From positions 1 through 58,612 of IMG/VR virus record IMGVR_UViG_3300027833_000058: DNA of 58,612 bases; one strand, given 5' to 3'. Below are positions 5,194 to 48,309 of the stretch, one piece after another (within the stretch, counting starts at the first letter, position 1; each line of letters opens with the position of its first letter). The position numbers were made by a program, and so were the translations under genes. The notes below the pieces were generated by a model. That model was not told the origin of the DNA, made no database searches, and worked only from the letters and a program-made list of their open reading frames with translations. The stretch is from a virus (Duplodnaviria; Caudoviricetes).

Positions 5194-5763
5194 TTAGTAT
5201 TCCTTGATCTTTTTTTCGATTGCAGTCATGATCTTATTGTGAGTTTTACTTAAGTATCTATCTTTTCTAAGGCGAGCTAATGCGACTCTTGTTTGATCAG
5301 CATATCTTTTCTGAAATTCAGGAGGTCTTGTATCAATATCTTGTACGTTGGCAAGACGATCTGCAAGCTTAACTACTAATGCCCAGCTAGACATCTTAGC
5401 CATTTTACCAGCAATATATTCACCTTTACCGACGGCGTCTGATGCTGCTTTATCTGTAGTTAATTGCTGAACCATATCTGCTACTAACGCACCAAATTGT
5501 TTAACTAAATCGGAGTATGTGGTATCAGTATCTTCTAGTGTATCATGCAAATAAGCTGCTTGGATCATAGCAGTAAGGTTATTTGATTTTTTGAATTTAG
5601 CAACAAACCTAGCAACTTCTTTAGGATGTTCAATGTACTGCCCACCACTTTTTCTAGATTGGCCAGAATGCGCTGCCGTTGCAACTCTTAGTGCTTTGAG
5701 TGCACTTTCATTCATAGATTGATCGTTAACGCCTTCACTAATGAAAGTCTTAAAATTAAGCAT
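5194..5763 (-). CDS. HD-domain small alarmone ((p)ppGpp) hydrolase-like protein, SpoT/Mesh1 type
   Basis: HSGQ.RKSG..YI.HP..VA, LHDTLEDT, VKLADRL.N. Confidence 0.85.
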   Translation of the reverse strand: MLNFKTFISEGVNDQSMNESALKALRVATAAHSGQSRKSGGQYIEHPKEVARFVAKFKKSNNLTAMIQAAYLHDTLEDTDTTYSDLVKQFGALVADMVQQLTTDKAASDAVGKGEYIAGKMAKMSSWALVVKLADRLANVQDIDTRPPEFQKRYADQTRVALARLRKDRYLSKTHNKIMTAIEKKIKEY

Positions 5764-7339
5764 TTGGAGTATCTTTTTTAAACTTATTAACTAACTCATC
5801 AGTGCCTTCTTCGCCAGCACCAGATTCTTTTTTCATAGCAATTAATTCAGAAGGTTTATGATTCATTGTCTTTTTACCAACACCAACCTTAACACTATCT
5901 TTAGTAACACTCAGAACTGTACCAATTCCGCCGTGCTTCATTTTAACTTTAGATCCTTCAGGAAACTGAGATGCCATTTGCGCAATTTGCTTGCGTAGAT
6001 TCTCATCTAGGTTCTCTTCTTTTTTAGCATTAAGCTTATCTCTTAAAGCTGCAATATCTTTTTTGATTGAATCTTTTTGTGGTTTAAAATGTTTGCTTAA
6101 AGGATTATCTTTCTTTACATCATTTGCTTCTTCAGTTGATTCTATTAAATCAAATATTTCTTGACTAACATCTTCAGTAACATGCTTTTTCTTAAACATT
6201 TTGAAACGTGCATCTAATTTTGGTTTATTATTTTTATCTAATAACATGTGTGGTTTTTTTAAAACTCTTTGATCTTTAATAGATGCTTCGTTAATATCTT
6301 CTTTCTTAACTACTGATGAAGAAGATCCACCGCTCATCATTGACTTACGACGCTCACGTTCTTTTTGTTTAACTACGGGTAATAATTTACGAGCAATTTG
6401 TTCTATACGCTTCTTATTAAGTTTAGAGATACGCTTATCAATTACTTCTTTTTCACCAGCCGATAGGTCAGCATAACGTCTGCTCTTTGAAAACTTTTTC
6501 TTAAATATATTAATAGCAGCTTTACGTGCTCTTCCTTTTAATACTTCTTGAGAAGCTGTTCTTTTCTTAGCTTTTTCTCTGCCACGTTTAATCTTAAAAC
6601 GGGCTTTCCTCATAGCAAGACCACGTTTACGTCTTTGCATACGGTTTAAAACTTCTGATATATCATTTGTTTCTTCTGTCATATTCATACCTTTACGTAC
6701 TGCTGTCATAATAGCTTTAGCAGATGATCTTAGCTTTTTAGGTAAACCTTTTGTAAACTGTAGAATATCGTTTTCAACGGCTAATGCTCTCATTTTAGAA
6801 GCAGACATTCCATCTACATTATCTGAGTCTGGATCTCTAGCACCAGCAGAAACTACTGCAATCGAATCAAAAGAATAATCTTTACCATTGTAATCATTTA
6901 ATAATTGTTTGAATTGATTAACTCTATCTGATCCAACAACCATTATAAGATTATCAAATTTCTCAACAGCTTGTAATACCTTAACGATAGTATTTGCCGG
7001 AGACTTTTGAACGATAGGACCAAATGCTTTTTGCGCAAACTTTACCTTATCGTTATACTGTAACGGGTTTTTCTTTTTGTCATTAGAATGAGTTAAGAAT
7101 ACCATAGGAGTTGCTTTATATTTTTTAGCAACCGTTATCATTCTTTGTACTAACAACTCGTGGCCAGCAGTAATAGGATTCATTCTTGCAAATGTAATTA
7201 CTACAGTACTACCTGCAGCTTCCTTTATTCCACGTCCACGATCATGATCGTCAAGCTCAGGTTCTATGTTGATAAATTTACTTCCATCAAACTCTTTAAA
7301 ACCTTTTACTTTTTTCTTTTTATCTTCTGGCTGGGCCAT
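5756..7339 (-). CDS. Cytidylyltransferase-like (HIGH superfamily) nucleotidyltransferase with basic C-terminal extension
   Basis: FARMNPITAGH, KNPL, VVGSDR, SAGARDPD, MSASKMR. Confidence 0.8.
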   Translation of the reverse strand: MAQPEDKKKKVKGFKEFDGSKFINIEPELDDHDRGRGIKEAAGSTVVITFARMNPITAGHELLVQRMITVAKKYKATPMVFLTHSNDKKKNPLQYNDKVKFAQKAFGPIVQKSPANTIVKVLQAVEKFDNLIMVVGSDRVNQFKQLLNDYNGKDYSFDSIAVVSAGARDPDSDNVDGMSASKMRALAVENDILQFTKGLPKKLRSSAKAIMTAVRKGMNMTEETNDISEVLNRMQRRKRGLAMRKARFKIKRGREKAKKRTASQEVLKGRARKAAINIFKKKFSKSRRYADLSAGEKEVIDKRISKLNKKRIEQIARKLLPVVKQKERERRKSMMSGGSSSSVVKKEDINEASIKDQRVLKKPHMLLDKNNKPKLDARFKMFKKKHVTEDVSQEIFDLIESTEEANDVKKDNPLSKHFKPQKDSIKKDIAALRDKLNAKKEENLDENLRKQIAQMASQFPEGSKVKMKHGGIGTVLSVTKDSVKVGVGKKTMNHKPSELIAMKKESGAGEEGTDELVNKFKKDTPNA

Positions 7340-7376
7340 AGTTAAATCCTAAGATGTAATTTGAGTCAATATTGCT

Positions 7377-8060
7377 TTATTTATAAAATCTTTGAAAAGA
7401 AGGTATAAAATTATAATTTCTGGCTGCTGAATCTGTCCAAATAGTTGATTTTCTTAACCATCCCATTGCTGGTGTAGGAGATGCTATTGATAATGGAACA
7501 ACTGTTCTTCTTTGATTTAATATGAAGTAATCGTTATCAACGGCGCTTCTTACACCCTTTTCAAGTAATTCATCTATTAATATTTGTGCAGTTTTTTTAG
7601 TCATAGCATAAGCATGTGCACCTTCGTGACCTGCTATTTTAATAAGTTCTGTTGGTGGTCCTGCAGATGTTGAATCATATCTGCTAGGATCTTGCAACTT
7701 GTATCCAAGTGTTACAATTTCATTGTCTGGTATATTTATTGTTATTGGGTGTAGCATTATAGCATCGTGCTCAAGTATCACTCCAACCTCATCTGGCCCA
7801 TCTGCGATGGCTTTCCAGATAGCAAAGTGTCCTGCAGTACAGCACATCGCTTTATCAGCAGGACTAGGAGATTCAATGTATTGATATTCTTCAACAACGC
7901 TGGTTCTAAGTCCAATTTTCCTAAATGCCATTCTACCAGACATGTTCTGAAAACCATTAACTACTACATATTCTAAATTTACTTTACGGCAAGACTCAGC
8001 ACATATGCTAGCATACTCGTTTGATACAGGAGTATCTATTTTTAAAATGTAAGCTTTCAT
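7377..8060 (-). CDS. Glycosyltransferase family 25-like
   Basis: C..GH..IW, ILEHDA, GAHAY motifs. Confidence 0.75.
   Translation of the reverse strand: MKAYILKIDTPVSNEYASICAESCRKVNLEYVVVNGFQNMSGRMAFRKIGLRTSVVEEYQYIESPSPADKAMCCTAGHFAIWKAIADGPDEVGVILEHDAIMLHPITINIPDNEIVTLGYKLQDPSRYDSTSAGPPTELIKIAGHEGAHAYAMTKKTAQILIDELLEKGVRSAVDNDYFILNQRRTVVPLSIASPTPAMGWLRKSTIWTDSAARNYNFIPSFQRFYK
7378..7385 (-). promoter_or_regulatory. Late promoter TATAAATA
   Basis: Exact motif upstream of the nucleotidyltransferase/HD operon. Confidence 0.7.
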
Positions 8061-8714
8061 TTAAGTGCCTTCGCTATAGCCTTTAATCTGCAAGCCTGCA
8101 CCAGTTGAGCCGAAATATTGTTCAGCATATACTTTTCCTGGACCGTCATATCTAGTATTAGATCCGTACCATTGTGGTATTAGAGTATACGAAGGCCAAA
8201 TAGTAACTGAGTTACCAATATAAGGAAGCAAGAATTTAGATAAGAAAAAGTTACCAGTTGAAATATAAGGGTGATCACTTAACTGGTTTGGTCTTAATCT
8301 ACTTAGGTGATCAATAATAGCACCTGTTACTACATTACCTGCATTAGCAGCAAGAATAGGAGAACAATATCCTGGCTTTGCTTTTTCACTTTCATAGACT
8401 GTATATGCATGATTAGCAGGACTACTAAATAATTCATCACATCTTTCTAAACATACTGAGTCTGCGGCTGGCCAAAACCCGCCTTGTTCGTGTATCAATT
8501 CATAACGAATTAAATCGTGTGCACCTGCGTACTTTTGTCTTCTGTAATATTCTTCAATTAAAGCTTGATTTTTCCATTTACGAGCCCATAACATTTCATC
8601 AGTGAATACACTATATTCCCAATCCGGATGTTTGTCTCGCCAAGTATTCATCCACTTCAATGGCGCTGGTTTAGGGCCAATCCATATGTGGGTCATTTTC
8701 TTTTCAATATTCAT
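8061..8714 (-). CDS. Glycosyltransferase, GT32/OCH1-like
   Basis: HIWIG, HPDWEY, DLIRYELI..GG; the DxD position reads AAD; TG motif. Confidence 0.75.
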   Translation of the reverse strand: MNIEKKMTHIWIGPKPAPLKWMNTWRDKHPDWEYSVFTDEMLWARKWKNQALIEEYYRRQKYAGAHDLIRYELIHEQGGFWPAADSVCLERCDELFSSPANHAYTVYESEKAKPGYCSPILAANAGNVVTGAIIDHLSRLRPNQLSDHPYISTGNFFLSKFLLPYIGNSVTIWPSYTLIPQWYGSNTRYDGPGKVYAEQYFGSTGAGLQIKGYSEGT

Positions 8715-8760
8715 TATATACCTCTTAATACAAAAAAAGGTAGACTTTCGCCTACCTCTT

Positions 8761-8768
8761 TATTTATA
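8761..8768 (-). promoter_or_regulatory. Late promoter TATAAATA
   Basis: Exact motif. Confidence 0.65.
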
Positions 8769-8841
8769 TTATTTTAGTGAAACTACTTACCGCCTTTTTT
8801 CTTCTCACCTTTAGGCTTTACATAAGTGTGGTCTGGATCTA

Positions 8842-9282
8842 TCATAGGTCAGCCAGTACGATTAACGCTTTAAGCTTTTTCTTTGATTTACCTTTTACTT
8901 TAACATCTTTTAAACGATCCTTGGCTTCACCATCTGGTTTACCTACAACAACAATTGCAATCATGCCCATAGACTTATGCGGTGAACATTGATATAGATA
9001 CACACCTGGTACATCAAATGTAATTGCAACTTCTTTGTTTAGCTTTGATTTCTTTGGTGCTTTCCAACCGTCTGGGCCAGAGATAAACTCTACGTTATGG
9101 CCTTTTGATGTTGGTACCCAAGTAATAGTCTCGCCTACTTCGATACGTGTAATGTCTTCTGAGTAAACCATTTTGGCTCCATCATCACGTTTGTTTAACA
9201 TTTCAACTGTTACGTCGGCGTGTGCTGCAGTCACGGTAAATACTGCTGCGAAAATTGCTAGATAAAAGTATAAAGTGTTCAT
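8842..9282 (-). CDS. Pseudoazurin (blue copper protein) with signal peptide
   Basis: Signal peptide ending AHA; VEMLN; GHNVEF; Y.C.PH..MGM copper ligands. Confidence 0.9.
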   Translation of the reverse strand: MNTLYFYLAIFAAVFTVTAAHADVTVEMLNKRDDGAKMVYSEDITRIEVGETITWVPTSKGHNVEFISGPDGWKAPKKSKLNKEVAITFDVPGVYLYQCSPHKSMGMIAIVVVGKPDGEAKDRLKDVKVKGKSKKKLKALIVLADL

Positions 9283-9290
9283 TGTATATC

Positions 9291-9425
9291 CTAACTTGTT
9301 TTGTACATGTTGTGTTTGAATTCTGAGATTTCATTGGCTTTATCATTCATGCCCATATCTCTTAACTGTTTAATACTCATACAGTAACTACGATATTCCA
9401 TTAGTTTTAAAAATCTTGTAAACAT
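9291..9425 (-). CDS. Small hypothetical protein (44 aa)
   Basis: Manual translation MFTRFLKLMEYRSYCMSIKQLRDMG...; GAGG RBS; fills the operon gap. Confidence 0.6.
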   Translation of the reverse strand: MFTRFLKLMEYRSYCMSIKQLRDMGMNDKANEISEFKHNMYKTS

Positions 9426-9440
9426 TGCGTTTCCTCTTTC

Positions 9441-9662
9441 TTACATCTTTTTACAGTCAAAGACTGATTTTTCTAATTGTACTGGTACACCGCCTTTTGC
9501 GATACATACCTCTTTCCAGTTTGGCTCATTAAACTTTTGAATTACTGCATAGAACCCGAATGCTGTACATATTAATAATAATGAAGTCATTACCACAAAC
9601 ATATAGAAGCCTAACTTCTGTACGACTTGGGCTGATATTTCAATATGTTGATCGCCTACCAT
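9441..9662 (-). CDS. Small membrane protein
   Basis: One TM helix followed by C..KGG...C; translationally coupled to atpE. Confidence 0.6.
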   Translation of the reverse strand: MVGDQHIEISAQVVQKLGFYMFVVMTSLLLICTAFGFYAVIQKFNEPNWKEVCIAKGGVPVQLEKSVFDCKKM

Positions 9663-9886
9663 TAGATGGCAAACATTAATAAGAGTGCTACTAAGAATGC
9701 AAAGATTCCTAATGCTTCTGCAAATGCAACTCCTACAAACATTGTGCCAGTATCTGGCTTCTTAGGCATTACCTTTAGTACACTACCTACAATTATTCCT
9801 ACGCCGATGGCTGCGCCACCCATACCAATTGTTGCTAACCCTGCGCCAATTAAGGCACCCATTGTTGCTATATCACCTGTAATCAT
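9662..9886 (-). CDS. atpE: F0 ATP synthase subunit c homolog with divergent loop
   Basis: [16 protein letters not shown] Gly-rich helix; [22 protein letters not shown] with the proton-binding Glu. Confidence 0.9.
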
Positions 9887-10092
9887 TATTTGCTCTCCAC
9901 CATTAATCTTCTTGCTTCTTCTACATACCCTTGACGGTATAACTCACTAGCAGCTCTTGCTCGACCTGCTGATTCACCAAACGCCCATAGGAACATTCCT
10001 GTTGCTACGATTGCTTTACTTAATATTTTTAAAGTTGTTTTTAAAGTTGTTTTTAAAGGATTGCTTACATATTCTGCATTTGCTAATTCCAT
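9886..10092 (-). CDS. Hypothetical protein
   Basis: Coupled ORF in operon; [15 protein letters not shown] motif. Confidence 0.6.
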
Positions 10093-10370
10093 TATACGAA
10101 ACCTCTTAAGTTAGGATTCCTACGTACTGGAGATCTATCACGAAGATTATTATCTTCCCAAGTATCATTAGCAATAGAACGAATATCACCACGGCTAATG
10201 CCGATGTCGTTGAGTTCTCTGTCTGTTAGTTTGTGGAGGGATTTAAATGTTTCGCGCTGTTCTTTCCATTTAGCAATTGCTGCTGAACGATTTTCAAAGA
10301 ACATTACAACCTTGTAGGCTGCAACTGCGAGAATGGATGACTGTGATGAAATGTTGTTAATGTGTAACAC
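10092..10370 (-). CDS. DUF1127 (YjiS-like) small protein
   Basis: L.KLTDRELNDIGISRGDI signature. Confidence 0.85.
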   Translation of the reverse strand: MLHINNISSQSSILAVAAYKVVMFFENRSAAIAKWKEQRETFKSLHKLTDRELNDIGISRGDIRSIANDTWEDNNLRDRSPVRRNPNLRGFV

Positions 10371-10532
10371 GGAATTCCCTTTCCTAATAAATGTTTCATT
10401 GTTTTACAATAATATTTATTTAAGAAATAGGTAACTAAGGGTTACTCATTTTATATAGCCGGTAGTCACCTACGGAATATGTGACAAAGTGTCAATTTGA
10501 CATTTAAGAATATCCATTAACCTTAGTTATTT

Positions 10533-10724
10533 TTATTCATCTGGATCATCTAAATCTGGATACTGATCAGGGAATTGTTCTTTATGTGCTGCAAGCATTA
10601 ATGCCTCAGTATCAAACTCCTGTACAGTAGCGTCATCACGATACGATACAACATTAGATTCACTTAATGAAATTGCTCCATCGTTGATAATAAAATAGCC
10701 TTCTGTTTTAGTTAATATAGCCAT
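10533..10724 (-). CDS. Hypothetical protein, probable start at ATG 10724
   Basis: ATG overlaps the stop of the upstream gene. Confidence 0.55.
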   Translation of the reverse strand: MAILTKTEGYFIINDGAISLSESNVVSYRDDATVQEFDTEALMLAAHKEQFPDQYPDLDDPDE

Positions 10725-12412
10725 TACGCTGTTCCTCCATCTGAAATTGTCCATCCGTCTGTACTAATTAGATTAGCTCTTGCTGCTTCTGCAGCACCAC
10801 CTGCGGTGTATTGACTGTACCCAAAGTGAGCAGACAGACCATCAAATGGATCCTGAGCATCCCAGTTGATTAAAAGTGCATCATAACGTGCGGTGGGTAA
10901 TGTTACACTACTCATAAAGATATTCAAAGCATAGGTACTGTTAAGGGCTTCAATATTAAAGTTCTCAACGCCATTGATATCTGTGAGACTGGAGCAAGAT
11001 GTGAACATCATTGACATATTTGTAACAGATGATGTATTAAAACTACTTACATTGAGTGATGTGAGACCGGAGCAAACCATAAACATTTGACTTATATTTG
11101 TAACAGATGATGTATTAAAACCACTCACATCGAGTGATGTAAGACTTCGACAATTATAAAACATCACGCTCATATCTGCAACACTTGATGTATTAAAACC
11201 ACTCACATCGAGTGATGTAAGACTTCGACACTGTGTAAACATCCTGCTCATAGTTATAACTGATGAGGTATCAAAATTACTTACATCGAGTGATGTGAGA
11301 CTGAAGCAATTATAAAACATATTATTGAAATGGGTAGCAGATGATGTATTAAAGTTGCTCAAATCAAGAGACGTGAGATCATACATTCGATTAAACATAC
11401 CACCAAATCCAATGCCAGAAACAGATGAGGTATCAAAACTACTTACATCGAGTGATGTGAGACTTCCACAATCATAAAACATGTTGTACATAGTTATAAC
11501 AGATGAGGTATCAAAACTACTTACATCGAGTGATGTTAAATCTTTATTTTCATTGAACATATAGCTCATATCTGTAACAGATGAGGTATCAAAGTTACTC
11601 AAATCAAGCGTTGTTAAATCTCTACAAGCGTGGAACATTCGCAGCATATTTGTAACAGATGAGGTATCAAAACTACTTACATCAAGCGTTGTTAGTTTGA
11701 TCATAACGAACATATAGCTCATATCTGTAACAGATGAGGTATCAAAGTTACTCAAATCAAGCGTTGTTAGTAGATGAGGACCATTGAACATTCCATGCAT
11801 ATTTGTAACAGATGAGGTATCTGTAACACCAACATTAAAGCTAGTCATGTTACCACATGACTTAAATGCGTTTACAAAGCTTTGCCAGCCGACTGTACCA
11901 AGGTTAGTTACTGTGATGACTTTTCCAGCGTTTGTTGAATTGTTACCAAATTTGATATTAGGGAACGTACCACTGATACTGATTGAGTGATCTCCAGCCG
12001 ATGCGTAAGTATGTGCTAGATTAGAATCATTATATGTTGTAACTGTAGATGATGAACCATCACCCCAATCAACAGTTGCGTTAAATGTTCCTACATTGTC
12101 ACAAGGTATGGTAAATGTCTCGCTGGCTGCTGTAGTCCTAACGGTCATGTCAAATGATGTACTTACATCATCCTCATCACCTCTTGCGTCCCAAAAGGAT
12201 TTACTTAATTCACCTCTGCTTGTATCAGCAGTATCACCAACTCTACGAACTTTAATATAAGTTAGTTGAACACTACCACCGGTAGGTGTAAATGTTCTAA
12301 TACCTGATACACATGATCCGTTTGCACCAACACAATCTGCTGACGTGGCCATATCATCATATTCCCAATCAGGGCTATTTGGAATTGCTACCCATGTCAT
12401 TATTTCATCCAC
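10724..12412 (-). CDS. BspA/DUF285-type leucine-rich-repeat protein with PKD-like domain
   Basis: VDWGDG PKD motif; about 11 repeats of LTSLDVSSFDTSSVTxMxxMF. Confidence 0.85.
   Translation of the reverse strand: MDEIMTWVAIPNSPDWEYDDMATSADCVGANGSCVSGIRTFTPTGGSVQLTYIKVRRVGDTADTSRGELSKSFWDARGDEDDVSTSFDMTVRTTAASETFTIPCDNVGTFNATVDWGDGSSSTVTTYNDSNLAHTYASAGDHSISISGTFPNIKFGNNSTNAGKVITVTNLGTVGWQSFVNAFKSCGNMTSFNVGVTDTSSVTNMHGMFNGPHLLTTLDLSNFDTSSVTDMSYMFVMIKLTTLDVSSFDTSSVTNMLRMFHACRDLTTLDLSNFDTSSVTDMSYMFNENKDLTSLDVSSFDTSSVITMYNMFYDCGSLTSLDVSSFDTSSVSGIGFGGMFNRMYDLTSLDLSNFNTSSATHFNNMFYNCFSLTSLDVSNFDTSSVITMSRMFTQCRSLTSLDVSGFNTSSVADMSVMFYNCRSLTSLDVSGFNTSSVTNISQMFMVCSGLTSLNVSSFNTSSVTNMSMMFTSCSSLTDINGVENFNIEALNSTYALNIFMSSVTLPTARYDALLINWDAQDPFDGLSAHFGYSQYTAGGAAEAARANLISTDGWTISDGGTA
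10990..11830. repeat. Tandem coding repeats of about 75-78 bp (LRR units)
   Basis: Recurrent gtaacagatgaggtatcaaa and catcgagtgatgt blocks. Confidence 0.85.
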
Positions 12413-19960: not shown

Positions 19961-20193
19961 TGTTTATTCTCCTTAATACTTGAAGTTGCTTTAACACTGC
20001 CACAATTGGCGCAATAAACAATTGTTGCAATAAACTGGTGTTTACCGATTTTAATGTTTCTTTTACCAGTTGATATATCTATTATATCACAACAGCCATT
20101 AACTGTCAACTGTTTATTTGAATTATTATTAACTCCTGATATCTTAGAGATAGGCTTAATTTCCAGTCCAAAATTACGTCTGTTAATCATCAT
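19957..20193 (-). CDS. Hypothetical protein with CC and CxxC (possible Zn ribbon)
   Basis: Operonic ORF. Confidence 0.45.
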   Translation of the reverse strand: MMINRRNFGLEIKPISKISGVNNNSNKQLTVNGCCDIIDISTGKRNIKIGKHQFIATIVYCANCGSVKATSSIKENKQ

Positions 20194-20872
20194 CTAGTTC
20201 CTCAAATAATACATTGTTAACATACTTTTCTTTATCTTCTTCTGATATTCCCATTGCTAAAATAGAACGGTGTAAGTGTGGATTAAGCTTTTGATTTTGA
20301 CAATACTTGTTTAGTAATGGTTTTATATTACGATGACTATCGAGAGCATTTGTATCTATGTTATCTAGGTAGTGATCTACTAAGTCAGTTGTTACTGCGA
20401 TAAACTGATTAAGCTCTTCGTCAGTCTTAATGTTACCGACTGCAAGCATGTCTTTTGAAAATATCTCTTGAGCCCACGGTGGTAATTCTCTAGGTTTGTT
20501 CCATTCTAAGTCTTTAACTCGCCTTTCCATATATTCATTATACGGATGCGGAAAACCACGCAAAGGACTGTAATCCATAAACGAACCTGTAATCTTTTTA
20601 GGTCCTGCTACAATATCAAATCCAAGTATAGGCAATTCGTAGCTTGGATCTGGAAACACATTCACATGCATTAGCCACAAACCTTTACCATCTGCCGGTA
20701 CAATTGTTTTTAAATGAGCTTTTGATACTTGATCAGAGTGCCAAAAAGTATCATTCCAATCTTTAAATTTAAGATCATCTGTATACTTTTCGTTATCATA
20801 ACGAGTAAAATGTTTATCGAAGCTTGCTGAAATATAATCAGCATAACCGTTTAATCTATCCCATAGTTCCAT
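20183..20872 (-). CDS. pcyX: Ferredoxin-dependent bilin reductase, PcyX/PcyA-like
   Basis: GLWLMH..VFP...PILGFDIVAG.KKITG.F.DYSP; RELPPWA.EIFS; YC.NQK.NPH; near heme oxygenase. Confidence 0.85.
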   Translation of the reverse strand: MELWDRLNGYADYISASFDKHFTRYDNEKYTDDLKFKDWNDTFWHSDQVSKAHLKTIVPADGKGLWLMHVNVFPDPSYELPILGFDIVAGPKKITGSFMDYSPLRGFPHPYNEYMERRVKDLEWNKPRELPPWAQEIFSKDMLAVGNIKTDEELNQFIAVTTDLVDHYLDNIDTNALDSHRNIKPLLNKYCQNQKLNPHLHRSILAMGISEEDKEKYVNNVLFEELDDD

Positions 20873-20884
20873 TATTCTTACCCT

Positions 20885-21058
20885 CTATATTACATCATCT
20901 TTTATTACTTTGGTTAATGTTGCGCTGAGATTGTCTTCACTTATACTCCACACAACATCATCACCAATATTAATATTGGACGCTAGTAATACAGAATCAG
21001 GGAGAACAATAAAATGCTCTCCCGTCTCAGATACTTGAACTTCAAGTTGATGATTCAT
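20885..21058 (-). CDS. Small AbrB/MazE-like protein (57 aa)
   Basis: Manual translation ...GEHFIVLPDSVL...IGDDVVW... Confidence 0.55.
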   Translation of the reverse strand: MNHQLEVQVSETGEHFIVLPDSVLLASNINIGDDVVWSISEDNLSATLTKVIKDDVI

Positions 21059-21243
21059 TTTTTCTTTTTAGCTCGCCGAGCTGCAGCATATTCGTTTTGC
21101 AGTAGCTGTTCGCGAACACTCTTTGTTTCTTGCCTACGGCTTCTAGCCGTTTCTGAACTAGCCATACGTTTTTGACGTTTTAAATCTTTTTCGATTCCAA
21201 AGTCAGTTTCAAATTCAATTTCATCTTGCATATTATTTTGCAT
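21055..21243 (-). CDS. Small basic hypothetical protein
   Basis: ORF with GGAG RBS. Confidence 0.55.
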   Translation of the reverse strand: MQNNMQDEIEFETDFGIEKDLKRQKRMASSETARSRRQETKSVREQLLQNEYAAARRAKKKK

Positions 21244-21286
21244 GAGATAGTCTCCTTTATTAACTGTTTGTTATGGTATAATTATA

Positions 21287-21856
21287 CTATGTAATAGTAG
21301 CTTTGTCAACCATTTCTTTTGAAAGTTCATCAAATAATTCTGAAGCAAAATCAAAACATATTTTTGCCTCATCAGCCATATCGTCTGATAACAATGTTCT
21401 AAACTGTTCAATAAGAACTTTAGTGTCACCTTCGAATTCGTACATCAAGCCATTGCCTGGAGTTTTCTTTTTGATAATTTGTCCACCGTGTAATTCACCA
21501 AAGTGGCGAACATACATATGCGCAAGTAAAGCTTCGTTATCATCAGCTTCTGCTAATCCATTAACATATGCTGCATACTTACTTACTGATGGAGGAAACA
21601 CGCCTGTAGGAGAGTAACCGAAGACTTCTTCTAGTTCTCTAATATCTTCAAAGATACGTCTATGACGTTTGATAGCGTGTAAGTTTGGGGGGATGATAGT
21701 GTGTCGTTCTAGTACTTCGTAATTCATGTACTGACAACATAGGAATTTGTGATACAAGGCTGTATCGATTTTTCCTGAAATAAGTTCTTTAGCAAATGCT
21801 CTTCGCTCAGCAGACTGATGGTGAGCCCAAGTTAATTCTTTCAATTTGTTTGACAT
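21287..21856 (-). CDS. hemO: Heme oxygenase
   Basis: LKELT...H..AE proximal His; AHMYVRHFGELHGGQII; EA..CF. Confidence 0.92.
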   Translation of the reverse strand: MSNKLKELTWAHHQSAERRAFAKELISGKIDTALYHKFLCCQYMNYEVLERHTIIPPNLHAIKRHRRIFEDIRELEEVFGYSPTGVFPPSVSKYAAYVNGLAEADDNEALLAHMYVRHFGELHGGQIIKKKTPGNGLMYEFEGDTKVLIEQFRTLLSDDMADEAKICFDFASELFDELSKEMVDKATIT

Positions 21857-39766: not shown

Positions 39767-40651
39767 ATGGCAAAAGTTCTAGTAACGGGTGCAACAGGCT
39801 ACATCGGCAGTCACGTTTGCAAACTCTTAAAATTAAATATGCACGAAGTAGAAGCTTGGGATACTAACATCCACGGCGAATATAATGAGATATCAGAATA
39901 TGTAGATCGATTTGAGAAAATTGATATTACTAATATTCCATATGCTTATGCTCACTTTGATGCAGTAGTTCATCTAGCAGGTCGTAGTGTTGTACCACAG
40001 AGTCTAAAAGAACCAACAGAATACTATAGAGTTAATGCTATGGGTACTTCACATATTCTTGATAAGGTAGCAACACCAAATTTCATTTTCGCTTCTACAT
40101 CTAGTGCTTGGGAAATGGCTTCGCCATATGCAAAAAGTAAAGTAGCAGCAGAAGATATTATTAAGGAAAAAGCAGATGGGCACACTATTTTTAGGTTTTT
40201 TAATGTATCTGGTACTGACGGTACTAATAGGCAACTTGGCCCTCCCAGTCATCTTATCCGTGTTGCTGCTATGGCTAGTCTTGACAAATCTCCCTCAATT
40301 AATATCTTTGGCAATGACTATACTACTCGCGATGGTACTTGCGTCCGGGATTACATTCATGTTCTCGATCTTGCTACTGCTATAGTACAAGCTGTAGAGA
40401 ATGGTCCACGTAACACAGATTACGAATGTCTTGGTAGTTACCAAGGTTTCACTGTTCTAGAGGTTCTAGATATGATGGAGAAAGTAACTGGTGTTAAGTT
40501 GGAAAGAAATATTTCTGGCAGAAGAGAAGGTGATGCTGTATCTTCTGTAGTTGACGAGTTATCAGAGTATGCAGTACTTACTAAAACTCTAGAAGATATG
40601 TGCAGAGATCAATTTAATTTAGAAAAAGGGTTGACAAACACCCAGAACTAA
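39767..40651 (+). CDS. galE: UDP-glucose 4-epimerase-like NAD-dependent epimerase
   Basis: GATGYIG, SPYAKSK, RFFNV, DGTCVRDYIHV. Confidence 0.9.
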   Translation: MAKVLVTGATGYIGSHVCKLLKLNMHEVEAWDTNIHGEYNEISEYVDRFEKIDITNIPYAYAHFDAVVHLAGRSVVPQSLKEPTEYYRVNAMGTSHILDKVATPNFIFASTSSAWEMASPYAKSKVAAEDIIKEKADGHTIFRFFNVSGTDGTNRQLGPPSHLIRVAAMASLDKSPSINIFGNDYTTRDGTCVRDYIHVLDLATAIVQAVENGPRNTDYECLGSYQGFTVLEVLDMMEKVTGVKLERNISGRREGDAVSSVVDELSEYAVLTKTLEDMCRDQFNLEKGLTNTQN

Positions 40652-40659
40652 GTTATAAT
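40631..40659 (+). promoter_or_regulatory. Consensus sigma70 promoter TTGACA-17-TATAAT
   Basis: Perfect hexamers. Confidence 0.8.
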
Positions 40660-40665
40660 GGCTAT

Positions 40666-40763
40666 ATTAAGTTAATGGTATGGAACGAGACGGCGAGAAG
40701 TTATGTAAGTGGTTTTCCCCAGCAACTTTTAGGACCCACGATGTATACCGCCATTAACTTAAT
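40666..40763 (+). ncRNA. Candidate rod-shaped small RNA
   Basis: 13-bp terminal inverted repeat ATTAAGTTAATGG/CCATTAACTTAAT beginning at the predicted start site. Confidence 0.55.
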
Positions 40764-40775
40764 TTTAATTATATT

Positions 40776-41000
40776 ATGAGTACAAAGATTATGAAGTGGT
40801 TAGCTACAGCATTATTCTTAACAGCAGGCACCCTACTATCTCTCAACATTGAGATATCCCGTTTTGGTTTTTTGTTGTTCTTATCCGGACACGTCTTATT
40901 AAGTTATTACTTTTATAAGCAGAAGGATTGGGCAATGACTACTCAAAACGGGTTTTTTCTGTTCATTGATGGTCTAGGAATTTACCGATGGTTTTTCTAA
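40776..41000 (+). CDS. Small membrane protein (about 3 TM)
   Basis: Hydrophobic; ends GIYRW. Confidence 0.65.
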   Translation: MSTKIMKWLATALFLTAGTLLSLNIEISRFGFLLFLSGHVLLSYYFYKQKDWAMTTQNGFFLFIDGLGIYRWFF

Positions 41001-41012
41001 GAGGAAAGGATT

Positions 41013-41153
41013 ATGGCAGTTAAATTTGCATCTACTGTAAATATAGTAAAGAACAACAAGAAAACTTCACAAGGCGATAAGAATGTAAAGATGGCTTCAA
41101 TGAATAAGTCAAAGAAACGTTCTTTTAAGAAGTATAGAGGGCAGGGAAAGTAA
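41013..41153 (+). CDS. Small basic protein (46 aa) ending KKYRGQGK
   Basis: Manual translation; AAGGA RBS; C-terminal motif common in marine phages. Confidence 0.7.
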   Translation: MAVKFASTVNIVKNNKKTSQGDKNVKMASMNKSKKRSFKKYRGQGK

Positions 41154-41263
41154 GTAGGAAAATGGTCGGCGCTTTAGGAGTTAAGGGTAGCGAATCCTAA
41201 CTCCAAGGTGGCCGACCCACCTACGCCTAGCTCATCGGCCCAAAACGGCTAACGGTCCTAGGT
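41154..41263. ncRNA. Candidate GC-rich structured RNA
   Basis: Stems GTAGG/CCTAC, GGTCGGC/GCCGACC, GGAGTTA/TAACTCC, GCCTAG/CTAGGT. Confidence 0.45.
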
Positions 41264-41267
41264 GATT

Positions 41268-41426
41268 CTACGCTTCAGGCTTCCATATAGTCCAAGCACC
41301 GTAAGCAATCATAACGTAAGCTACTAAAGCAACAGGTGCTAGTAACATCATTACTCCACCACCAATAAGCATTGCTCCATCAGCGGATGTTCTTTCTTTT
41401 AGTCTGTTTTTAATAAAATTTATCAT
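41268..41426 (-). CDS. Small membrane protein (52 aa), holin-like
   Basis: Manual translation MINFIKNRLKERTSADGAMLIGGG...YGAWTIWKPEA; AGGAG RBS. Confidence 0.6.
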   Translation of the reverse strand: MINFIKNRLKERTSADGAMLIGGGVMMLLAPVALVAYVMIAYGAWTIWKPEA

Positions 41427-41428
41427 GT

Positions 41429-41764
41429 CTATGTCTCCTTTTTTTGACGAATTATTTTAGCCTTTTTTCCATTCTCTAACGACTTAATTCTCAATTCAAG
41501 TACATTGATATCTGACACAAGACCGTCGATTTTTTTAGTTACTTTAGGATAACGCTTGCGCCACGCTTCTGGGTCGTCTTGTAACCAAGTCCAACCCCAC
41601 CGAACAGCGAGATAATCTAAACAGTTGTCAAATTTCCCCATTGCCCATAATGCCATATTTGTATTTCGAAACCATGCTAGAAATGCTGCACCAAGAATAG
41701 ATCCGGCGATTGCGGTATAAATCCACAGTGTATCTCCGAACATTGCATTAAGTGTATCAATCAT
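41429..41764 (-). CDS. Membrane-anchored hypothetical protein
   Basis: N-terminal TM segment; operonic. Confidence 0.65.
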   Translation of the reverse strand: MIDTLNAMFGDTLWIYTAIAGSILGAAFLAWFRNTNMALWAMGKFDNCLDYLAVRWGWTWLQDDPEAWRKRYPKVTKKIDGLVSDINVLELRIKSLENGKKAKIIRQKKET

Positions 41765-42464
41765 TTAGTTTCTCCGTATGCTTAACATAGTTTTGCATTC
41801 CGTGATCTTCAGCGCCGTCGAGAATACCAGATCTCCAACCACGCCATTTATCTTTTATCATCTGCCAAGTAGTAAGCTTTCTAATATTACCATAGAAGTT
41901 AATATATTGTTGATCACCGTGATGCTTATATCCCATTATGAATAACGGAACTTTTGTCACTAGATCATTATTATTAACGAATCTTTTATGTGGTGTAGAA
42001 ATAGCTTTAACAAACTTTCGTGTGCCAACTCTTGGAGATCCGAATGTTGTTAGTGATTCTACTTCGGTATATTCTTCCATACGTGAAGTACATATAGTTG
42101 CCATTGCAGCACCTAAAGAATGTCCTGTAATATGTAAGGTTTTCTTTTCATGTGTTAATTGATGCTTTGATATAACGCTCCACAGCTTATCACATTCATT
42201 TCTAAATCCTGAATGAACTAAACCGTGAGTCATTGCTCCACGAGGAATTGCATTTAAATCTGCTAATAAGTCAGATAACTCTGAAGGCTCGGTACCTCTA
42301 AAAGCTAATACATATTCTGTTTTATTCCAAAATGCATGGCACTGAGCACCGTCATCTTCGAAAAATTTATGTCCTGTGTAACCTAATTTCTTTTTGAATG
42401 CTTTGGCTTCCTTGCTATCGAGATACGCAATCTCTGCAAGTTGAGCCATTTTATTACTCCACAT
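41757..42464 (-). CDS. Class 3 lipase
   Basis: AFRGT, VHSGF, GHSLG, TFGSPRVG, D.V..VP. Confidence 0.9.
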   Translation of the reverse strand: MWSNKMAQLAEIAYLDSKEAKAFKKKLGYTGHKFFEDDGAQCHAFWNKTEYVLAFRGTEPSELSDLLADLNAIPRGAMTHGLVHSGFRNECDKLWSVISKHQLTHEKKTLHITGHSLGAAMATICTSRMEEYTEVESLTTFGSPRVGTRKFVKAISTPHKRFVNNNDLVTKVPLFIMGYKHHGDQQYINFYGNIRKLTTWQMIKDKWRGWRSGILDGAEDHGMQNYVKHTEKLND

Positions 42465-42478
42465 TTTAACTTCTCCGT

Positions 42479-42625
42479 TTAGGGTATTATATCATATTTA
42501 TTAGGATTCATTGTCTGGTCCATATTAGGTCCGACCTCTTCCCAATACTGTTCACTTCTTTCTGCTGCTATTTGCATGGATATAAGAAGTATCAAAATTC
42601 CAGCCGCCCATATTAACTTACTCAT
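42479..42625 (-). CDS. Small exported or membrane peptide (48 aa)
   Basis: Manual translation MSKLIWAAGILILLISMQIAAE... Confidence 0.5.
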   Translation of the reverse strand: MSKLIWAAGILILLISMQIAAERSEQYWEEVGPNMDQTMNPNKYDIIP

Positions 42626-43007
42626 ATCTATTATCCCAAGGGGCGTTTTCGTTACATCCTGCTGGCAAATGATCTTTATACCAAACGGAAGCTGTCATTC
42701 CACTGGCATTAACAGATATTGTACTTTTTTCAAATGGCATTTCTCTAGGTTTACCCCAGCACCGGTTCATGCTTTGTCCAGGATACAAATATCTTGGATT
42801 GGCCTTTATAAAGCTTTGATATTCTATAAGCTTTTTATTATTGTCAACATCTTTCCAGTCGAAATAACAAGACGCAGCAGCGTTATAATCCCCAGCATTT
42901 TCTAAATTACATTGTCCTATTACTTTGTTATTTTCCGACTGTACGTTTGCGCTAGTAGCAGTCGCTATAAACAGTGGCAAAGCAATTATTCTAATTAGTT
43001 TTCTCAT
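42618..43007 (-). CDS. Exported Cys-containing protein, probable start MRKLIRII
   Basis: Signal peptide at the internal ATG; two Cys pairs. Confidence 0.6.
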   Translation of the reverse strand: MRKLIRIIALPLFIATATSANVQSENNKVIGQCNLENAGDYNAAASCYFDWKDVDNNKKLIEYQSFIKANPRYLYPGQSMNRCWGKPREMPFEKSTISVNASGMTASVWYKDHLPAGCNENAPWDNRYE

Positions 43008-43119
43008 CGTCTTTACACTCACACTTTGTACATACATCATTAACACATTTAGAACAGTCTGTAGCATAGCAGTGACATCGGTGGCCACAACTTTTACAAT
43101 ATCTTTCTGTTCCTTGCAA
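42991..43119 (-). CDS. Metallothionein-like Cys-rich peptide (42 aa, TTG start)
   Basis: MQGTERYCKSCGHRCHCYATDCSKCVNDVCTKCECKDDEKTN; 9 Cys, 2 His; AAAGGT RBS. Confidence 0.7.
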   Translation of the reverse strand: MQGTERYCKSCGHRCHCYATDCSKCVNDVCTKCECKDDEKTN

Positions 43120-43130
43120 TAAATCTACCT

Positions 43131-43772
43131 TTAATTTGCTAAAGGATTGTCGAGAGCACGCTGCAATGTTTTATTTAGAGCAGCATCTAGTTCATCCATT
43201 TTACGTTGTAAAGAAGATCGTAACGCTTCGTTGTCTCGCTCAACCTTGCTTTCTAAATCGGTCATGCGCGAATTATTAGAGTCTCTTAAAGCGTTAGCCT
43301 TTGTGTCATAATCATTTTGCAATGCATCTCTTTTGTTTTCAAAACGTTCTTCAGCATTTTGAATTACTGCACGATTATCTTCTTCTTGTTCTCTAACTTT
43401 ATCATCCATACGATCTACTTGTTTTTCAATTCCAAGTATATCATCTCGTAAACCTGACTTAATATCCCGTGTATATTCTATAGCTTCGTCGATTCTTAAC
43501 ATAGCATCATTAAGTTTAACAATAACTTTGTCGTTTTCTACTTGTATAGCTTCTACATCTATGTTTTGTACAATCTCTTTCATTGCCATATAATCATCAT
43601 ATACTTTAAATGATCCATATAAACCACCGAGGATTGTACTGATCAAGGCAAACAACATACCGATTGTCGTTGGCGTCATAGTGATACCAAAGATTTTCAT
43701 CTTTGTATTCTTTAAATTCTCTATTTCTGCTTCGAAGTTTTCTATGCCTTCGCCTAAATCTTTTTTTGCCAT
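43131..43772 (-). CDS. Membrane-anchored coiled-coil protein
   Basis: Single TM then long heptad region ending LDNPLAN. Confidence 0.7.
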   Translation of the reverse strand: MAKKDLGEGIENFEAEIENLKNTKMKIFGITMTPTTIGMLFALISTILGGLYGSFKVYDDYMAMKEIVQNIDVEAIQVENDKVIVKLNDAMLRIDEAIEYTRDIKSGLRDDILGIEKQVDRMDDKVREQEEDNRAVIQNAEERFENKRDALQNDYDTKANALRDSNNSRMTDLESKVERDNEALRSSLQRKMDELDAALNKTLQRALDNPLAN

Positions 43773-43784
43773 CTGATTATCCTG

Positions 43785-44219
43785 TTAGTTTTCAAACTCT
43801 GCGCTTGTACCTGAGGCATTCAAACGTTTTAAAGCTTCCAGTTCTTGTTGTAGTTTAAGAACTTCTAAACGTTTCTTTCTCAACTCTAATTGGTATAGCG
43901 AATTACAATTAATTCTTTCTTTTGGTTTATCGAGTGGTATAGTAATCCTCGCATAAACACCTATATCTTTTTCTGTATTACCAAAGGGGTCTGAATTATT
44001 TCCTCCAAACGGCGATTGATAATTATCAATAACTCCTGTCACACCAAATTCTAGATTAGTCGCGCCACCAATAGAGTTTTTACAATCTAAGTCTCCTGCA
44101 CGAATACTGTCTTGGCCATATGTACCGCTCATTCCTGGTAATGATATACCTACGCCACTACTTTGGGCATAAGATATACTAGGCACAGAAAGTAAAAGTA
44201 CTAATATCAACTTTTTCAT
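43785..44219 (-). CDS. Exported protein with amphipathic beta-hairpin and C-terminal coiled coil
   Basis: Signal peptide; C...LEFGVTG...GVYARITIPL...C. Confidence 0.65.
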   Translation of the reverse strand: MKKLILVLLLSVPSISYAQSSGVGISLPGMSGTYGQDSIRAGDLDCKNSIGGATNLEFGVTGVIDNYQSPFGGNNSDPFGNTEKDIGVYARITIPLDKPKERINCNSLYQLELRKKRLEVLKLQQELEALKRLNASGTSAEFEN

Positions 44220-44231
44220 TTTATAACCTTT

Positions 44232-44624
44232 TTATTTTACACGCGAACAGATTCTTGACTTTATTGCTGTTCTCGTAATTTCTTTTTTCCTTAATTTGGA
44301 CATTGAGCAAATATAAGTTATTCTTTTCTTATCTTCGTTTCTTATATAGATCTCAACTGATACTGTGCTTAAATACGGTATTTTATAAATTTTGTAATTA
44401 GACACAAATGGAATAGGTTTCCAGTCCTTGGTAAACACTCCTAATTCGTAATATTCTACTTCTGCTCGTTTATTAAAAATTGTCATAGTAGTCTTCTGTA
44501 ACCCATCAATATGTGATATTGAAAGCTCCGGATAAGTTGGAACCATCTCGTGCGAGTAGGCTACAGAAGATATTGTTAATACCATAGCAGCTATAATGTA
44601 TTTCATTTTAGTCATAAATCTCAA
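44232..44624 (-). CDS. Exported beta-rich protein, possibly pilus-chaperone/Ig-like
   Basis: Signal peptide; P..P.L, T.TIFN, alternating strands, Cys pair. Confidence 0.55.
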   Translation of the reverse strand: MRFMTKMKYIIAAMVLTISSVAYSHEMVPTYPELSISHIDGLQKTTMTIFNKRAEVEYYELGVFTKDWKPIPFVSNYKIYKIPYLSTVSVEIYIRNEDKKRITYICSMSKLRKKEITRTAIKSRICSRVK

Positions 44625-44632
44625 TCTTTTAA

Positions 44633-45157
44633 TTATTTAGCTATGCAATCAGCCTGTACTAATGCTGTATAGTTACCACCTGGGAATGCTTTGTTGCCGC
44701 CCATAGTAGCTACTGAACTTGTTTGGAACCAAGTTGAACCAGTTGCTGTTAGGTCATAACGATCCATCATACCTAATTCTATTTTACTTGATTCATAAGC
44801 ACCCATTGTTGTAGCATCTGATACAGTTTTTACAGTTGTATCTCCAGTCCACGTTACTTGATCTGGCAATGTTGGTGATGTGCTAAATTCTTGCGGTCCA
44901 GTAATCTCTGCATAGTATGAATCAGCCAAAGTAACATCAATACGAATTACTGACTGCTCACCACCATCTGAAGATGATGTTGTAAGTGTGTAAGCATTCG
45001 GGTTACCAAAAGTACCTGACGTATCTGTTTGAATAATGCAACGAGATTGTACTGTACCGTTGATTGGTGTTTCATCTGCTTGTGCTATTCCAGCGGGTGC
45101 GGCTAATAAAAACCCCATAAATGCAGTCGCTGTAATCATATTTTTATTGTTAAACAT
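44633..45157 (-). CDS. Exported fimbrial/Csu (SCPU)-like subunit
   Basis: Signal peptide ending AQA; I.GTV...C.I N-terminus; PGG.Y.A.V...C C-terminus; Thr/Ser-rich. Confidence 0.55.
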   Translation of the reverse strand: MFNNKNMITATAFMGFLLAAPAGIAQADETPINGTVQSRCIIQTDTSGTFGNPNAYTLTTSSSDGGEQSVIRIDVTLADSYYAEITGPQEFSTSPTLPDQVTWTGDTTVKTVSDATTMGAYESSKIELGMMDRYDLTATGSTWFQTSSVATMGGNKAFPGGNYTALVQADCIAK

Positions 45158-45172
45158 ATTAGTGTCTCCTAA

Positions 45173-46090
45173 TTATTTTGTAGTTAAATTGTATTGCATG
45201 TCAACCATTTGTTTGTGTAGCAATTGTTGCGCTAATCCATTACGTAAACCACTTTTTCCATCAGGTATATCACCACCAGCCATTACTACCGTTTCATTGT
45301 ATTCACCACCTGGTATATTTACAGGAAAGTAATTACTTATAATAGCAGCTTGTGCAGTACTGTTCATTCTATTTATCGTTTGGTTTTCAGCAAATAGTGC
45401 TGCAGTATCTCCAACCGACATTGCTTTTTCTAAGCGGTATTTTCTATCTTCTTCTTCTTGCGCTTCTAACTCTGCAAGTTCTTCATCTGTTAAACCATCT
45501 TGCTCATTATATTCATCATTAGGATCCCATTCAGCTTGACTTGAATCCCCTTCTTCAACAGCATCATAAATCTTATAATCTATATCCGGTATAACTGGAA
45601 CCGGAGTCTTATAGTTAGGACAATTAGAGTCGAACTGTGGATCGAAACAAGGTGTTACTTTATATGTGTATACAACACTTGCTTCATCAACTGATCCATT
45701 ACCGTCAACTTGTATGCTTCCGTCGCCCCATAAGGCACGTGGAATATTTCCTACTGGTATTGCTCTTTGAATTCTAGTTCCACCTAATGATCCAGGTTTC
45801 CAGTCATCACGTGATCTGAAAACATAACCTTCTCCATTAGCTAATTCATTTTGAACATATACTGTAACCCACTCACCTGTTTCTTTTTGAATACGATAAC
45901 CGTATATTACGTTCTGTATATCCAATCCTGGATTATCAGGCAGAATGTTACCCATTGTCCATTTCAATGCTTGGTCGGCAACTGCATTGCCAGTGTAGCC
46001 GTAATATGGCGTTATGCTTTTACTTTCCTCAGAGGAAGAGTAAGAAGGCCAAAATCCCAGCGCCAATAGCAGGAGCAGCTTTTTCTGCAT
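45173..46090 (-). CDS. Exported hypothetical protein
   Basis: Signal peptide; beta-rich domain; CFDPQFDSNCP; acidic linker; AQQLLH..MV..QY end. Confidence 0.65.
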   Translation of the reverse strand: MQKKLLLLLALGFWPSYSSSEESKSITPYYGYTGNAVADQALKWTMGNILPDNPGLDIQNVIYGYRIQKETGEWVTVYVQNELANGEGYVFRSRDDWKPGSLGGTRIQRAIPVGNIPRALWGDGSIQVDGNGSVDEASVVYTYKVTPCFDPQFDSNCPNYKTPVPVIPDIDYKIYDAVEEGDSSQAEWDPNDEYNEQDGLTDEELAELEAQEEEDRKYRLEKAMSVGDTAALFAENQTINRMNSTAQAAIISNYFPVNIPGGEYNETVVMAGGDIPDGKSGLRNGLAQQLLHKQMVDMQYNLTTK

Positions 46091-46601: not shown

Positions 46602-46652
46602 TTCATTCTTCTCCAGTATACTTCATCATTTTACATTACTACTTACAGTTAT

Positions 46653-46660
46653 TATTTATA
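46653..46660 (-). promoter_or_regulatory. Late promoter TATAAATA heading the exported-protein operon
   Basis: Exact motif about 50 nt upstream of the first ATG. Confidence 0.7.
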
Positions 46661-46738
46661 AACAAAAAGTATTGGTAATAATAAATAAGTTAATTATACA
46701 TATACGTGTAATTAAACAATCACTCAAGGATTATTAAA

Positions 46739-47251: not shown

Positions 47252-47365
47252 TTATAAGAGTGGTCTTCTTTATAACAAAATGATCTAAGAAGTACTCAAA
47301 ATTAGTGTACTTTTGTTCTGAAATGATGTATAATATACCTATATTAAACAATAGAGATATACATT

Positions 47366-47905: not shown

Positions 47906-47916
47906 TAAATAGTATT

Positions 47917-48281: not shown

Positions 48282-48309
48282 ATATACATAATGATTAAGG
48301 AAGTTACTT

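Follow-up and report, generated by a model that had tools for sequence, protein, structure and literature searches.

The auxiliary genes of phages are mostly taken for spare parts that maintain host metabolism. In the F-type ATP synthase, the c subunit AtpE of Rhodobacterales and Paracoccaceae (PF00137, NF005733; structure 5dn6) is a two-helix hairpin with a glycine motif in its first transmembrane helix (TM1) and a Glu in its second (TM2). The polar loop of the c subunit (ARNPS) makes the contact with the central stalk, gamma/epsilon (PMC3542316). We describe here a variant of this protein encoded by a phage, within a row of six small genes, g1 to g6, in a 58.6-kb piece (58,612 nt, hereafter the window) of the IMG/VR virus record IMGVR_UViG_3300027833_000058 (CheckV 28%). 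The variant, g3, shares the hairpin, the glycine motif and the Glu with AtpE and is 88% identical to it in TM2. It differs from AtpE in lacking the R-N-P docking loop, being five residues shorter in that loop and scoring below the equivalog cut-off; moreover it is phage-encoded, no other atp gene was found with it, and a novel one-helix protein, g4, always follows it.

The best explanation of the region is one compact predicted operon with three separable layers (g1-g2-g5, g3-g4 and g6). At about even odds (a probability near 0.5), we propose that g3 and g4 would enter the F0 part of the host ATP synthase and give rotors that F1 grips poorly or not at all.

Other members of the row also have described counterparts. 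With the pseudoazurins (TIGR02375; structures 3tu6, 1bqk and 1adw), g6 shares a full-length match, the ligand pattern, a predicted signal peptide and a C-terminal extension. Like the PetE protein of cyanophages (phrog_515), it would be a soluble carrier of electrons that a phage took over from a host; the phage is here one of heterotrophic Alphaproteobacteria, and in the case of PetE one of cyanobacteria. The DUF1127 domain of g1 is that of CcaF1, of the small DUF1127 proteins (SDPs) of Agrobacterium tumefaciens and of Salmonella YjiS, and its N-terminal hydrophobic segment may be set beside the amphipathic helix proposed for YjiS. Small DUF1127 proteins are shorter (47-54 amino acids (aa) in A. 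tumefaciens and 54 aa for YjiS, against 92 aa for g1), and g1 is set apart from them by a conserved C-terminal tail, by being phage-encoded and by being always followed by g2, the few neighborhoods given below aside. Finally, cyanobacterial AtpTheta (PMC11707872, PMC12648545) exemplifies small non-catalytic modulators of ATP synthase and is a possible analogy for g2, g4 and g5; it has no sequence relation to them, and it acts on the intact enzyme by inhibiting hydrolysis, while in the phage case the effect would come from a changed rotor subunit.

A c subunit with a replaced loop

The match of g3 to PF00137 (ATP-synt_C) is well above the cut-off of 24, with 49.2 bits (48.6 bits in the genome search). 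Aligned with host c subunits it keeps the TM1 packing motif G-x-G-x-G-x-G, and its TM2, AFAEALGIF with the ion-binding Glu57, is nearly letter-for-letter host-like. In the cytoplasmic loop, the host ALRNPAAAAGQTAT is replaced by a segment five residues shorter in which R-N-P is absent, a difference that recurs when the comparison is made with the structure from Paracoccus denitrificans (5dn6); g3 thus has neither form of the R-N/Q-P by which the polar loop of a subunit c is recognized. The alphaproteobacterial equivalog profile NF005733 gives it 66.9 bits, under the cut-off of 85, versus 104.7 bits for a Neptunicoccus control (P0080).

Loops were surveyed in 121 sequences, namely that of the window and the best 120 of 744 hits, and the counts of loop types refer to this set. 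There are 42 R-N/Q-P loops, 38 M-P-K loops and 41 others, including ATIVKDSNKQQGN and ALPHRSAEQNAN, and two of these other classes are found on viral contigs in the same g1-(g2)-g3-g4 order. The M-P-K-K loop is itself conserved in the window's own c-subunit clade; the third position of the loop is variable (P, A, S, T or G). Glu57 of TM2 is retained in every sequence except one that is truncated. Mean pairwise identity in the loop is 0.82 within the R-N-P sequences, 0.34 within the non-R-N-P sequences and 0.20 between the two, and the corresponding values for TM2 are 0.94, 0.93 and 0.88. By these values the membrane part is under the same constraint as it is in cells, and the F1-facing loop has been freed of its universal constraint and rebuilt several times.

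Among named sequences, those closest to g3 are the c subunits of Amylibacter, Neptunicoccus and Paracoccaceae (~63-66% identity), and g3 is a Rhodobacterales-type c subunit, captured from a Rhodobacterales host. Its usual companions were sought with PF00119 and PF00006, and by these searches g3 is not encoded with other atp genes. The a subunit (PF00119) is absent in four of four related phage records, a set that includes a CheckV-complete genome of 221 kb and does not include the window's record. For alpha/beta (PF00006), nothing exceeded the cut-off in five of five records, including both the window's and the complete 221-kb genome; a weak match in one of them (G002) reached 12.7 bits, below the cut-off of 29.5. 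In the complete relative, where a and alpha/beta were the subunits sought, the c subunit is the only ATP-synthase gene found. The original prediction included the F0 rotor in its module; that atpE supplies an ordinary rotor part is the less probable reading, given that the loop that docks F1 is replaced and that the score falls below the equivalog cut-off.

No relative of g3 was found among deposited phage genomes (50,697 records), and a search of GenBank phages gave none of g2 either. The literature searched gave no description of a phage-encoded c subunit, and supplementary tables of auxiliary metabolic genes, which lay outside that search, could list the KEGG term; the sole literature match to K02110 concerns community transcripts and not a viral gene.

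In g4, the partner of g3, one hydrophobic stretch covers residues ~18-42, and ten residues are invariant, two of them Cys (G18, F22, M25, L28, C32, G36, F37, A39, V40 and C53). A word-indexed search gave a family of 72 unnamed proteins on contigs of up to 286 kb; a full hidden Markov model (HMM) search of 1.84 billion representative proteins gave 8 clusters, all of the same family, and in the search for a remote family the Atlas gave only unnamed clusters below 0.9. Among 39 distinct g3/g4 pairs, the stop and start codons overlap by 1 nt in 32, and the genes are within 1 nt in every pair; we argue from the conservation of the overlap that g3 and g4 are made in a coupled, stoichiometric manner. 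We regard g4 as a tiny, phage-only orphan family and the obligate partner of g3. A complex prediction with three copies of g3 and g4 (score 0.01, mark 0.32) counts neither way.

Linkage in related phages

Relatives of g3 and g6 on viral contigs defined 227 loci, which were scanned with profiles of the six proteins. Merging of DNA-identical neighborhoods left 58 distinct c-subunit neighborhoods, and the denominators given here count those with enough flanking sequence. One of the four locus collections was seeded with g6, so that the g6-linked class is if anything over-sampled. The c subunit has g1 upstream in 51/51 and g2 upstream in 49/51 (it is missing in L150 and L219), and g4 lies directly downstream in 53/53; g5 follows g4 in 21/50, and g6 occurs within 2.2 kb after the c subunit in only 6/50. 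A single c-subunit gene and a single DUF1127 gene are present in the CheckV-complete relative of 221 kb, and a profile search found no copper protein in it. We conclude that the row is a composite and not one obligate module, made of an older g1-g2(-g5) frame, an inseparable g3-g4 insert and a variable slot. Linkage of the row in related phages is nearly universal for the order DUF1127-g2-c subunit-g4, and for pseudoazurin it is the exception.

Counted from the pseudoazurin side, the best 80 of 338 viral relatives of g6 gave 49 distinct neighborhoods with room upstream. None of g1-g5 is upstream in 26 of these and the full g1-g5 set is in 7; another 7 have g1-g2 only, 6 have g1-g2-g5 and 3 have g1 only. 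The near relative L073, whose g5 is 93% and whose g7 (a downstream gene described below) is 86% identical, has g1-g2-g5-g6 and no g3-g4, which argues that the g3-g4 pair moves as a unit. In the close relative L013 an unrelated 194-aa open reading frame (ORF; L013:3355-3939) occupies the place after g5 where the window has pseudoazurin, and this slot seems to be a variable cargo position.

Gene organization

The six co-oriented small ORFs expected at 8842-10370 are all present (Table 1). So are the TAATG stop/start joins proposed for the first four genes, which read CATTA on the plus strand at 10090-10094 (g1/g2), 9884-9888 (g2/g3) and 9660-9664 (g3/g4); the remaining gaps are 15 nt (g4/g5) and 8 nt (g5/g6). 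None of the six is a chance ORF, since all are conserved as proteins on related phage contigs, with g1, g2 and g4 recognizable down to 35-45% identity. Their shared orientation is unremarkable: from 387 to 33309, all ORFs of 90 aa or more, those nested in a longer one aside, are on the minus strand, and close packing of genes is frequent throughout the phage of the window. Profile searches upheld the family labels first given to g1 (DUF1127), g3 (ATP-synt_C) and g6 (copper protein), and gave no match for g2, g4 or g5 in Pfam, PHROG or NCBIfam.

Table 1. Genes of the row and the non-coding elements at its two ends, in window coordinates
Feature	Coordinates	Strand	Description or basis
g1	10092..10370	-	92-aa DUF1127 protein, GTG start
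g2	9886..10092	-	68-aa helical small protein
g3	9662..9886	-	74-aa F-type ATP synthase c subunit variant
g4	9441..9662	-	73-aa single-pass membrane protein (one hydrophobic span)
g5	9291..9425	-	44-aa basic small protein
g6	8842..9282	-	146-aa pseudoazurin-like blue copper protein
Upstream non-coding region, 162 nt	10371..10532	-	Motif scan; ~130 nt conserved
Intrinsic-terminator-like hairpin, 12-bp stem + T run	8734..8761	-	Terminator scan

Pseudoazurin and the small proteins

The match of g6 to PF00127 (Copper-bind) has 58.2 bits, and its best NCBIfam match is TIGR02375 (pseudoazurin) at 103.9 bits, narrowly below the cut-off of 109.85, with the next families far lower (amicyanin 46.3, plastocyanin 33.8). 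All of its best PDB matches are pseudoazurins. The GHNV ... CSPHKSMGM of g6 aligns with the GHN ... C-x-P-H-x-x-M-G-M of 3tu6 and 1bqk, and the aligned His, Cys, His and Met are presumably the four type-1 copper ligands. A hydrophobic segment occupies residues 4-26, and residue 1 of mature 1bqk aligns with g6 residue 22; hydrophobicity and this alignment together predict a signal peptide of ~21-22 residues. The most suitable reading of g6 is that of a carrier of electrons that is exported, the counterpart of PetE in cyanophages, and its gene appears to be separately mobile and optional. We found no description of a phage pseudoazurin in the literature searched.

Among the small proteins, g1 matches PF06568 (DUF1127) over residues 30-64 with 46.1 bits (cut-off 23.3), and also phrog_26566. 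Its N-terminal segment is moderately hydrophobic. Nearly every phage g1 protein closes with the C-terminal tail N-x-N-L-[RK]-G-[WFS]-V (10095-10118 in the window), regardless of how long the preceding linker is. CcaF1, the DUF1127 protein of Rhodobacter sphaeroides, reportedly binds RNA, and by analogy post-transcriptional control by g1 is possible. Other properties published for DUF1127 proteins are binding to the sensor kinase PhoR, for the SDPs of A. tumefaciens, and association with the inner membrane, for Salmonella YjiS.

The family of g2 is large and unnamed (2066 proteins), with the invariant motif G-R-A-R-A-A-x-E-L-x-R-x-G-x-x-x-E-A; its AlphaFold model has helices at 12-53 and 57-65 (pLDDT 72). 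The 44-residue g5, known in 26 distinct conserved forms of which 20 were aligned, resembles the C-terminal half of g2 (hhalign 75%, E 2.5e-5), sharing the motif R-A-A-x-E-L-x-R-x-G-x-x-x-E-A. All of g1, g2 and g5 are older phage small proteins and probably act as cytoplasmic or membrane-peripheral regulators. The idea that g2 and g5 are themselves diverged DUF1127 proteins was rejected on profile comparison probabilities of 1.6% and 0.4%. A 12-nt tandem duplication in the window's g2 (LKTT LKTT, ~10027-10050) is missing in relatives, and contigs of relatives from RNA libraries leave out 12 nt at 10026/10027.

Transcription signals and RNA libraries

Upstream of g1, a Shine-Dalgarno-like GGAAAGGG lies at 10377-10384, 7 nt before the GTG, and further 5' are a T4-late-promoter-like ATAAATA (10413-10419) and a TTGACA (10490-10495). 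About 130 nt of this region are kept in position and sequence at many related loci. The ATAAATA is shared by relatives, yet in the window the motif has chance frequency (21 on the minus strand, 9 on the plus strand), and because it is not enriched we make no claim on the timing of expression. A sigma-70 promoter scan did no better than shuffles (6 found, 7.6 expected), and an Rfam search of 8600-10800 matched no family. More distant relatives (for example L040, L043, L049 and L060) have a conserved coding region directly before g1, where the window is non-coding.

The terminator scan found 4 sites, with 1.0 expected. The hairpin listed in Table 1 sits between g6 and the next gene, closing the cassette, and one weak terminator-like site falls within g1. 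A perfect T4-late-type TATAAATA stands immediately before the hairpin in an element at 8734-8768, followed by the ribosome-binding site of the next gene, a glycosyltransferase gene at 8061-8714; terminator and next promoter seem to be packed together there.

Evidence from RNA consists of contigs at least 88% alike from four marine or seawater RNA libraries, from four studies. They cover the cassette, and each junction is spanned by single contigs, with library DNA a possible source: X2 record 20 (9100-9709) bridges g6/g5/g4/g3, X1 record 2 bridges g4/g3, X12 record 12 and X4 record 30 bridge g4/g3/g2, X2 record 22 bridges g3/g2/g1 and X12 record 14 bridges g2/g1. Two contigs omit 8845-9297 and 8855-9247, which is the g6 interval, and come from relatives without pseudoazurin. 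The contigs leave 10428-10600 uncovered, which says nothing on where a transcript starts. Taken together they are compatible with expression of the cassette and are no proof of it.

Phage, host and neighboring genes

The window has a T4-type replication and recombination set: a DnaB-like helicase, UvsX, gp32, gp43 polymerase and gp46/47, further topoisomerase II, gp59, UvsY and the late-transcription coactivator. Its polymerase is ~44% identical to those of the nearest deposited phages, which are cyanomyophages, and we assign the window to an uncultured lineage of marine T4-like myoviruses. The most likely host is a member of the Rhodobacteraceae. The nearest genuinely bacterial relatives of g6, in assemblies of Ascidiaceihabitans and other Rhodobacteraceae with 47-49% guanine plus cytosine (GC), are 65-67% identical and have none of g1-g5 beside them, and the native c subunit of these genomes is 66% identical to g3. 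Relatives of g1 occur in 22 records of cultured phages, all from phages of Alphaproteobacteria, with Sinorhizobium, the Roseobacter group, Lentibacter and Celeribacter as sources. A 43-kb contig of 34% GC in a Rhodobacteraceae bin (L229) carries g4-g5-g6 at up to 83% identity, and its assembly holds additional fragments of the phage c subunit; it has the look of phage DNA that was sorted into a bacterial bin, and as a hint of host association it is weak at best.

Just upstream of the cassette, 10724-12412 encodes a 562-aa DUF285/leucine-rich-type repeat protein (PF03382, 201.8 bits). Directly downstream, at 5756-8714, are a cytidylyltransferase-like gene and two glycosyltransferase genes (Gly_transf_sug, Glyco_transf_25); downstream genes of this stretch are kept beside the cassette in many relatives, as g7 and g8. 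On the minus strand at 20186-21856, ~400 nt with two small ORFs separate the genes for a heme oxygenase (PF01126) and a ferredoxin-dependent bilin reductase (PF05996). The pair looks like the hemO and PcyX/PcyA-type cassette that PMC11480375 describes for aquatic phages. Farther on, 39767-58179 has more genes of metabolic appearance, encoding an NAD-dependent epimerase, a class 3 lipase, an SNase, an Fe-S cluster assembly protein (PF01521), Cpn10 and two radical SAM proteins.

Discussion

TM2 is the helix with which a c subunit meets the a subunit and the neighboring c subunits, and to our knowledge the a subunit is its only protein partner outside the ring. Entry of g3 and g4 into the host F0 is the most economical reading, because the loop for stalk contact is lost, TM2 is host-like and the phage has neither an a subunit nor F1 genes of its own in the records searched. 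In the sequence of events that we envision, g3 would be inserted into the host membrane, helped or held by g4, and would either join host c subunits or make a ring of its own against the host a subunit. F1 would grip such F0 rotors poorly or not at all, and coupling between proton flow and ATP turnover would be altered in the infected cell. The benefit could be a controlled leak, blocked reversal of the ATP-wasting kind, or something else. Where pseudoazurin is present it may pass electrons on to terminal enzymes of the host, in a role like that of plastocyanin in cyanophages; any joint action of the layers would be a further assumption. In a more specific version, which we hold possible but less likely than not, g3 and g4 would be a dominant-negative rotor, with the g4-escorted c variant sitting in host rings and F1 either not driven any more or not driving the ring.

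Several points weigh against entry into the host F0. The case rests on comparison of sequences, and what a phage would gain from uncoupling is not obvious. The conserved M-P-K-K of the window's clade is explained equally well by a new, specific partner and by a lost function, and HMMER can align the K-K-P of the phage loop with the R-N-P of Paracoccus, so that residual contact with the stalk is possible. The promoter motif before g1 does not rise above chance and would leave expression timing unsupported, and RNA libraries may contain DNA, nor is a multi-gene contig proof of a single transcript.

Alternatively, g3 and g4 could form a free-standing channel or ring, for instance an F1-free ion leak that depolarizes the cell for lysis timing or phage exclusion. 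We consider this unlikely but worth weighing: g4 is an obligate, phage-only partner that hosts are without, no a subunit or F1 genes were found in the phage records searched, and a missing F1 loop suits a ring meant to remain uncapped. There is also a published model in which purified c rings conduct ions and F1 gates them shut (PMC9433415). That mitochondrial leak model resembles the phage case in that an F1-less c ring would conduct and g3 has no F1-docking loop, and it differs in being eukaryotic and debated. What speaks against a channel is TM2, 88% identical to that of hosts and as constrained as theirs, where a self-contained pore would be freer to drift; nor does the cassette adjoin the endolysin gene at 387-1235. 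In another reading g3 is an ordinary auxiliary metabolic gene whose product takes the place of host c subunits or adds to them and so sustains ATP synthesis during infection, a spare part comparable to phage psbA for photosystem II. Both helices, the TM1 glycine motif and Glu57 are intact in g3, the PF00137 cut-off is passed, and K-K-P can be aligned to R-N-P. A spare part is nonetheless improbable in our judgment, as the loop is five residues shorter, is 20% identical to that of hosts, has an unconserved third position and is wholly different in other phage lineages, the score stays below an equivalog cut-off that the host protein passes, and a novel partner in 53/53 cases would be needless.

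The most inclusive reading is that of the original prediction, one bioenergetics module of six genes in which electron transfer, the F0 rotor and RNA control act together. Much of its basis stands: the genes are real and tightly coupled, several touch energy conversion, all six lie here in one terminator-bounded unit, and the full order recurs in 7/49 distinct pseudoazurin neighborhoods (from the best 80 of 338). The linkage counts largely refute the whole, as pseudoazurin follows the c subunit in 6/50 and is without g1-g5 in 26/49 of its own neighborhoods. In L013 a 194-aa ORF of another kind takes the place after g5, the complete relative has a c subunit and no copper protein, and RNA-library contigs of relatives skip exactly the g6 interval. 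An integrated module thus ranks as very improbable.

Preferring entry of g3 and g4 into the host F0, we note what sets g3 apart: a membrane part that is strongly constrained, a surface linking it to ATP synthesis that is stripped, and a new obligate partner. Independently of the c subunit, g6 stretches the theme of plastocyanin-type electron carriers from cyanophages to phages of heterotrophs. If the dominant-negative version were true, the phage would directly control whether proton flow makes ATP, leaks, or avoids ATP-wasting reversal, and many marine roseobacter phages would share a host take-over of a new class, directed at the ATP synthase. If g3 acts on the F0 of its host, no viral factor known before it would target the ATP-synthase rotor, and g3 would be a natural tool for studies of c-ring assembly and F1-F0 coupling; the energy metabolism of infected Rhodobacteraceae, which are a major group in the sea, would be affected as well.

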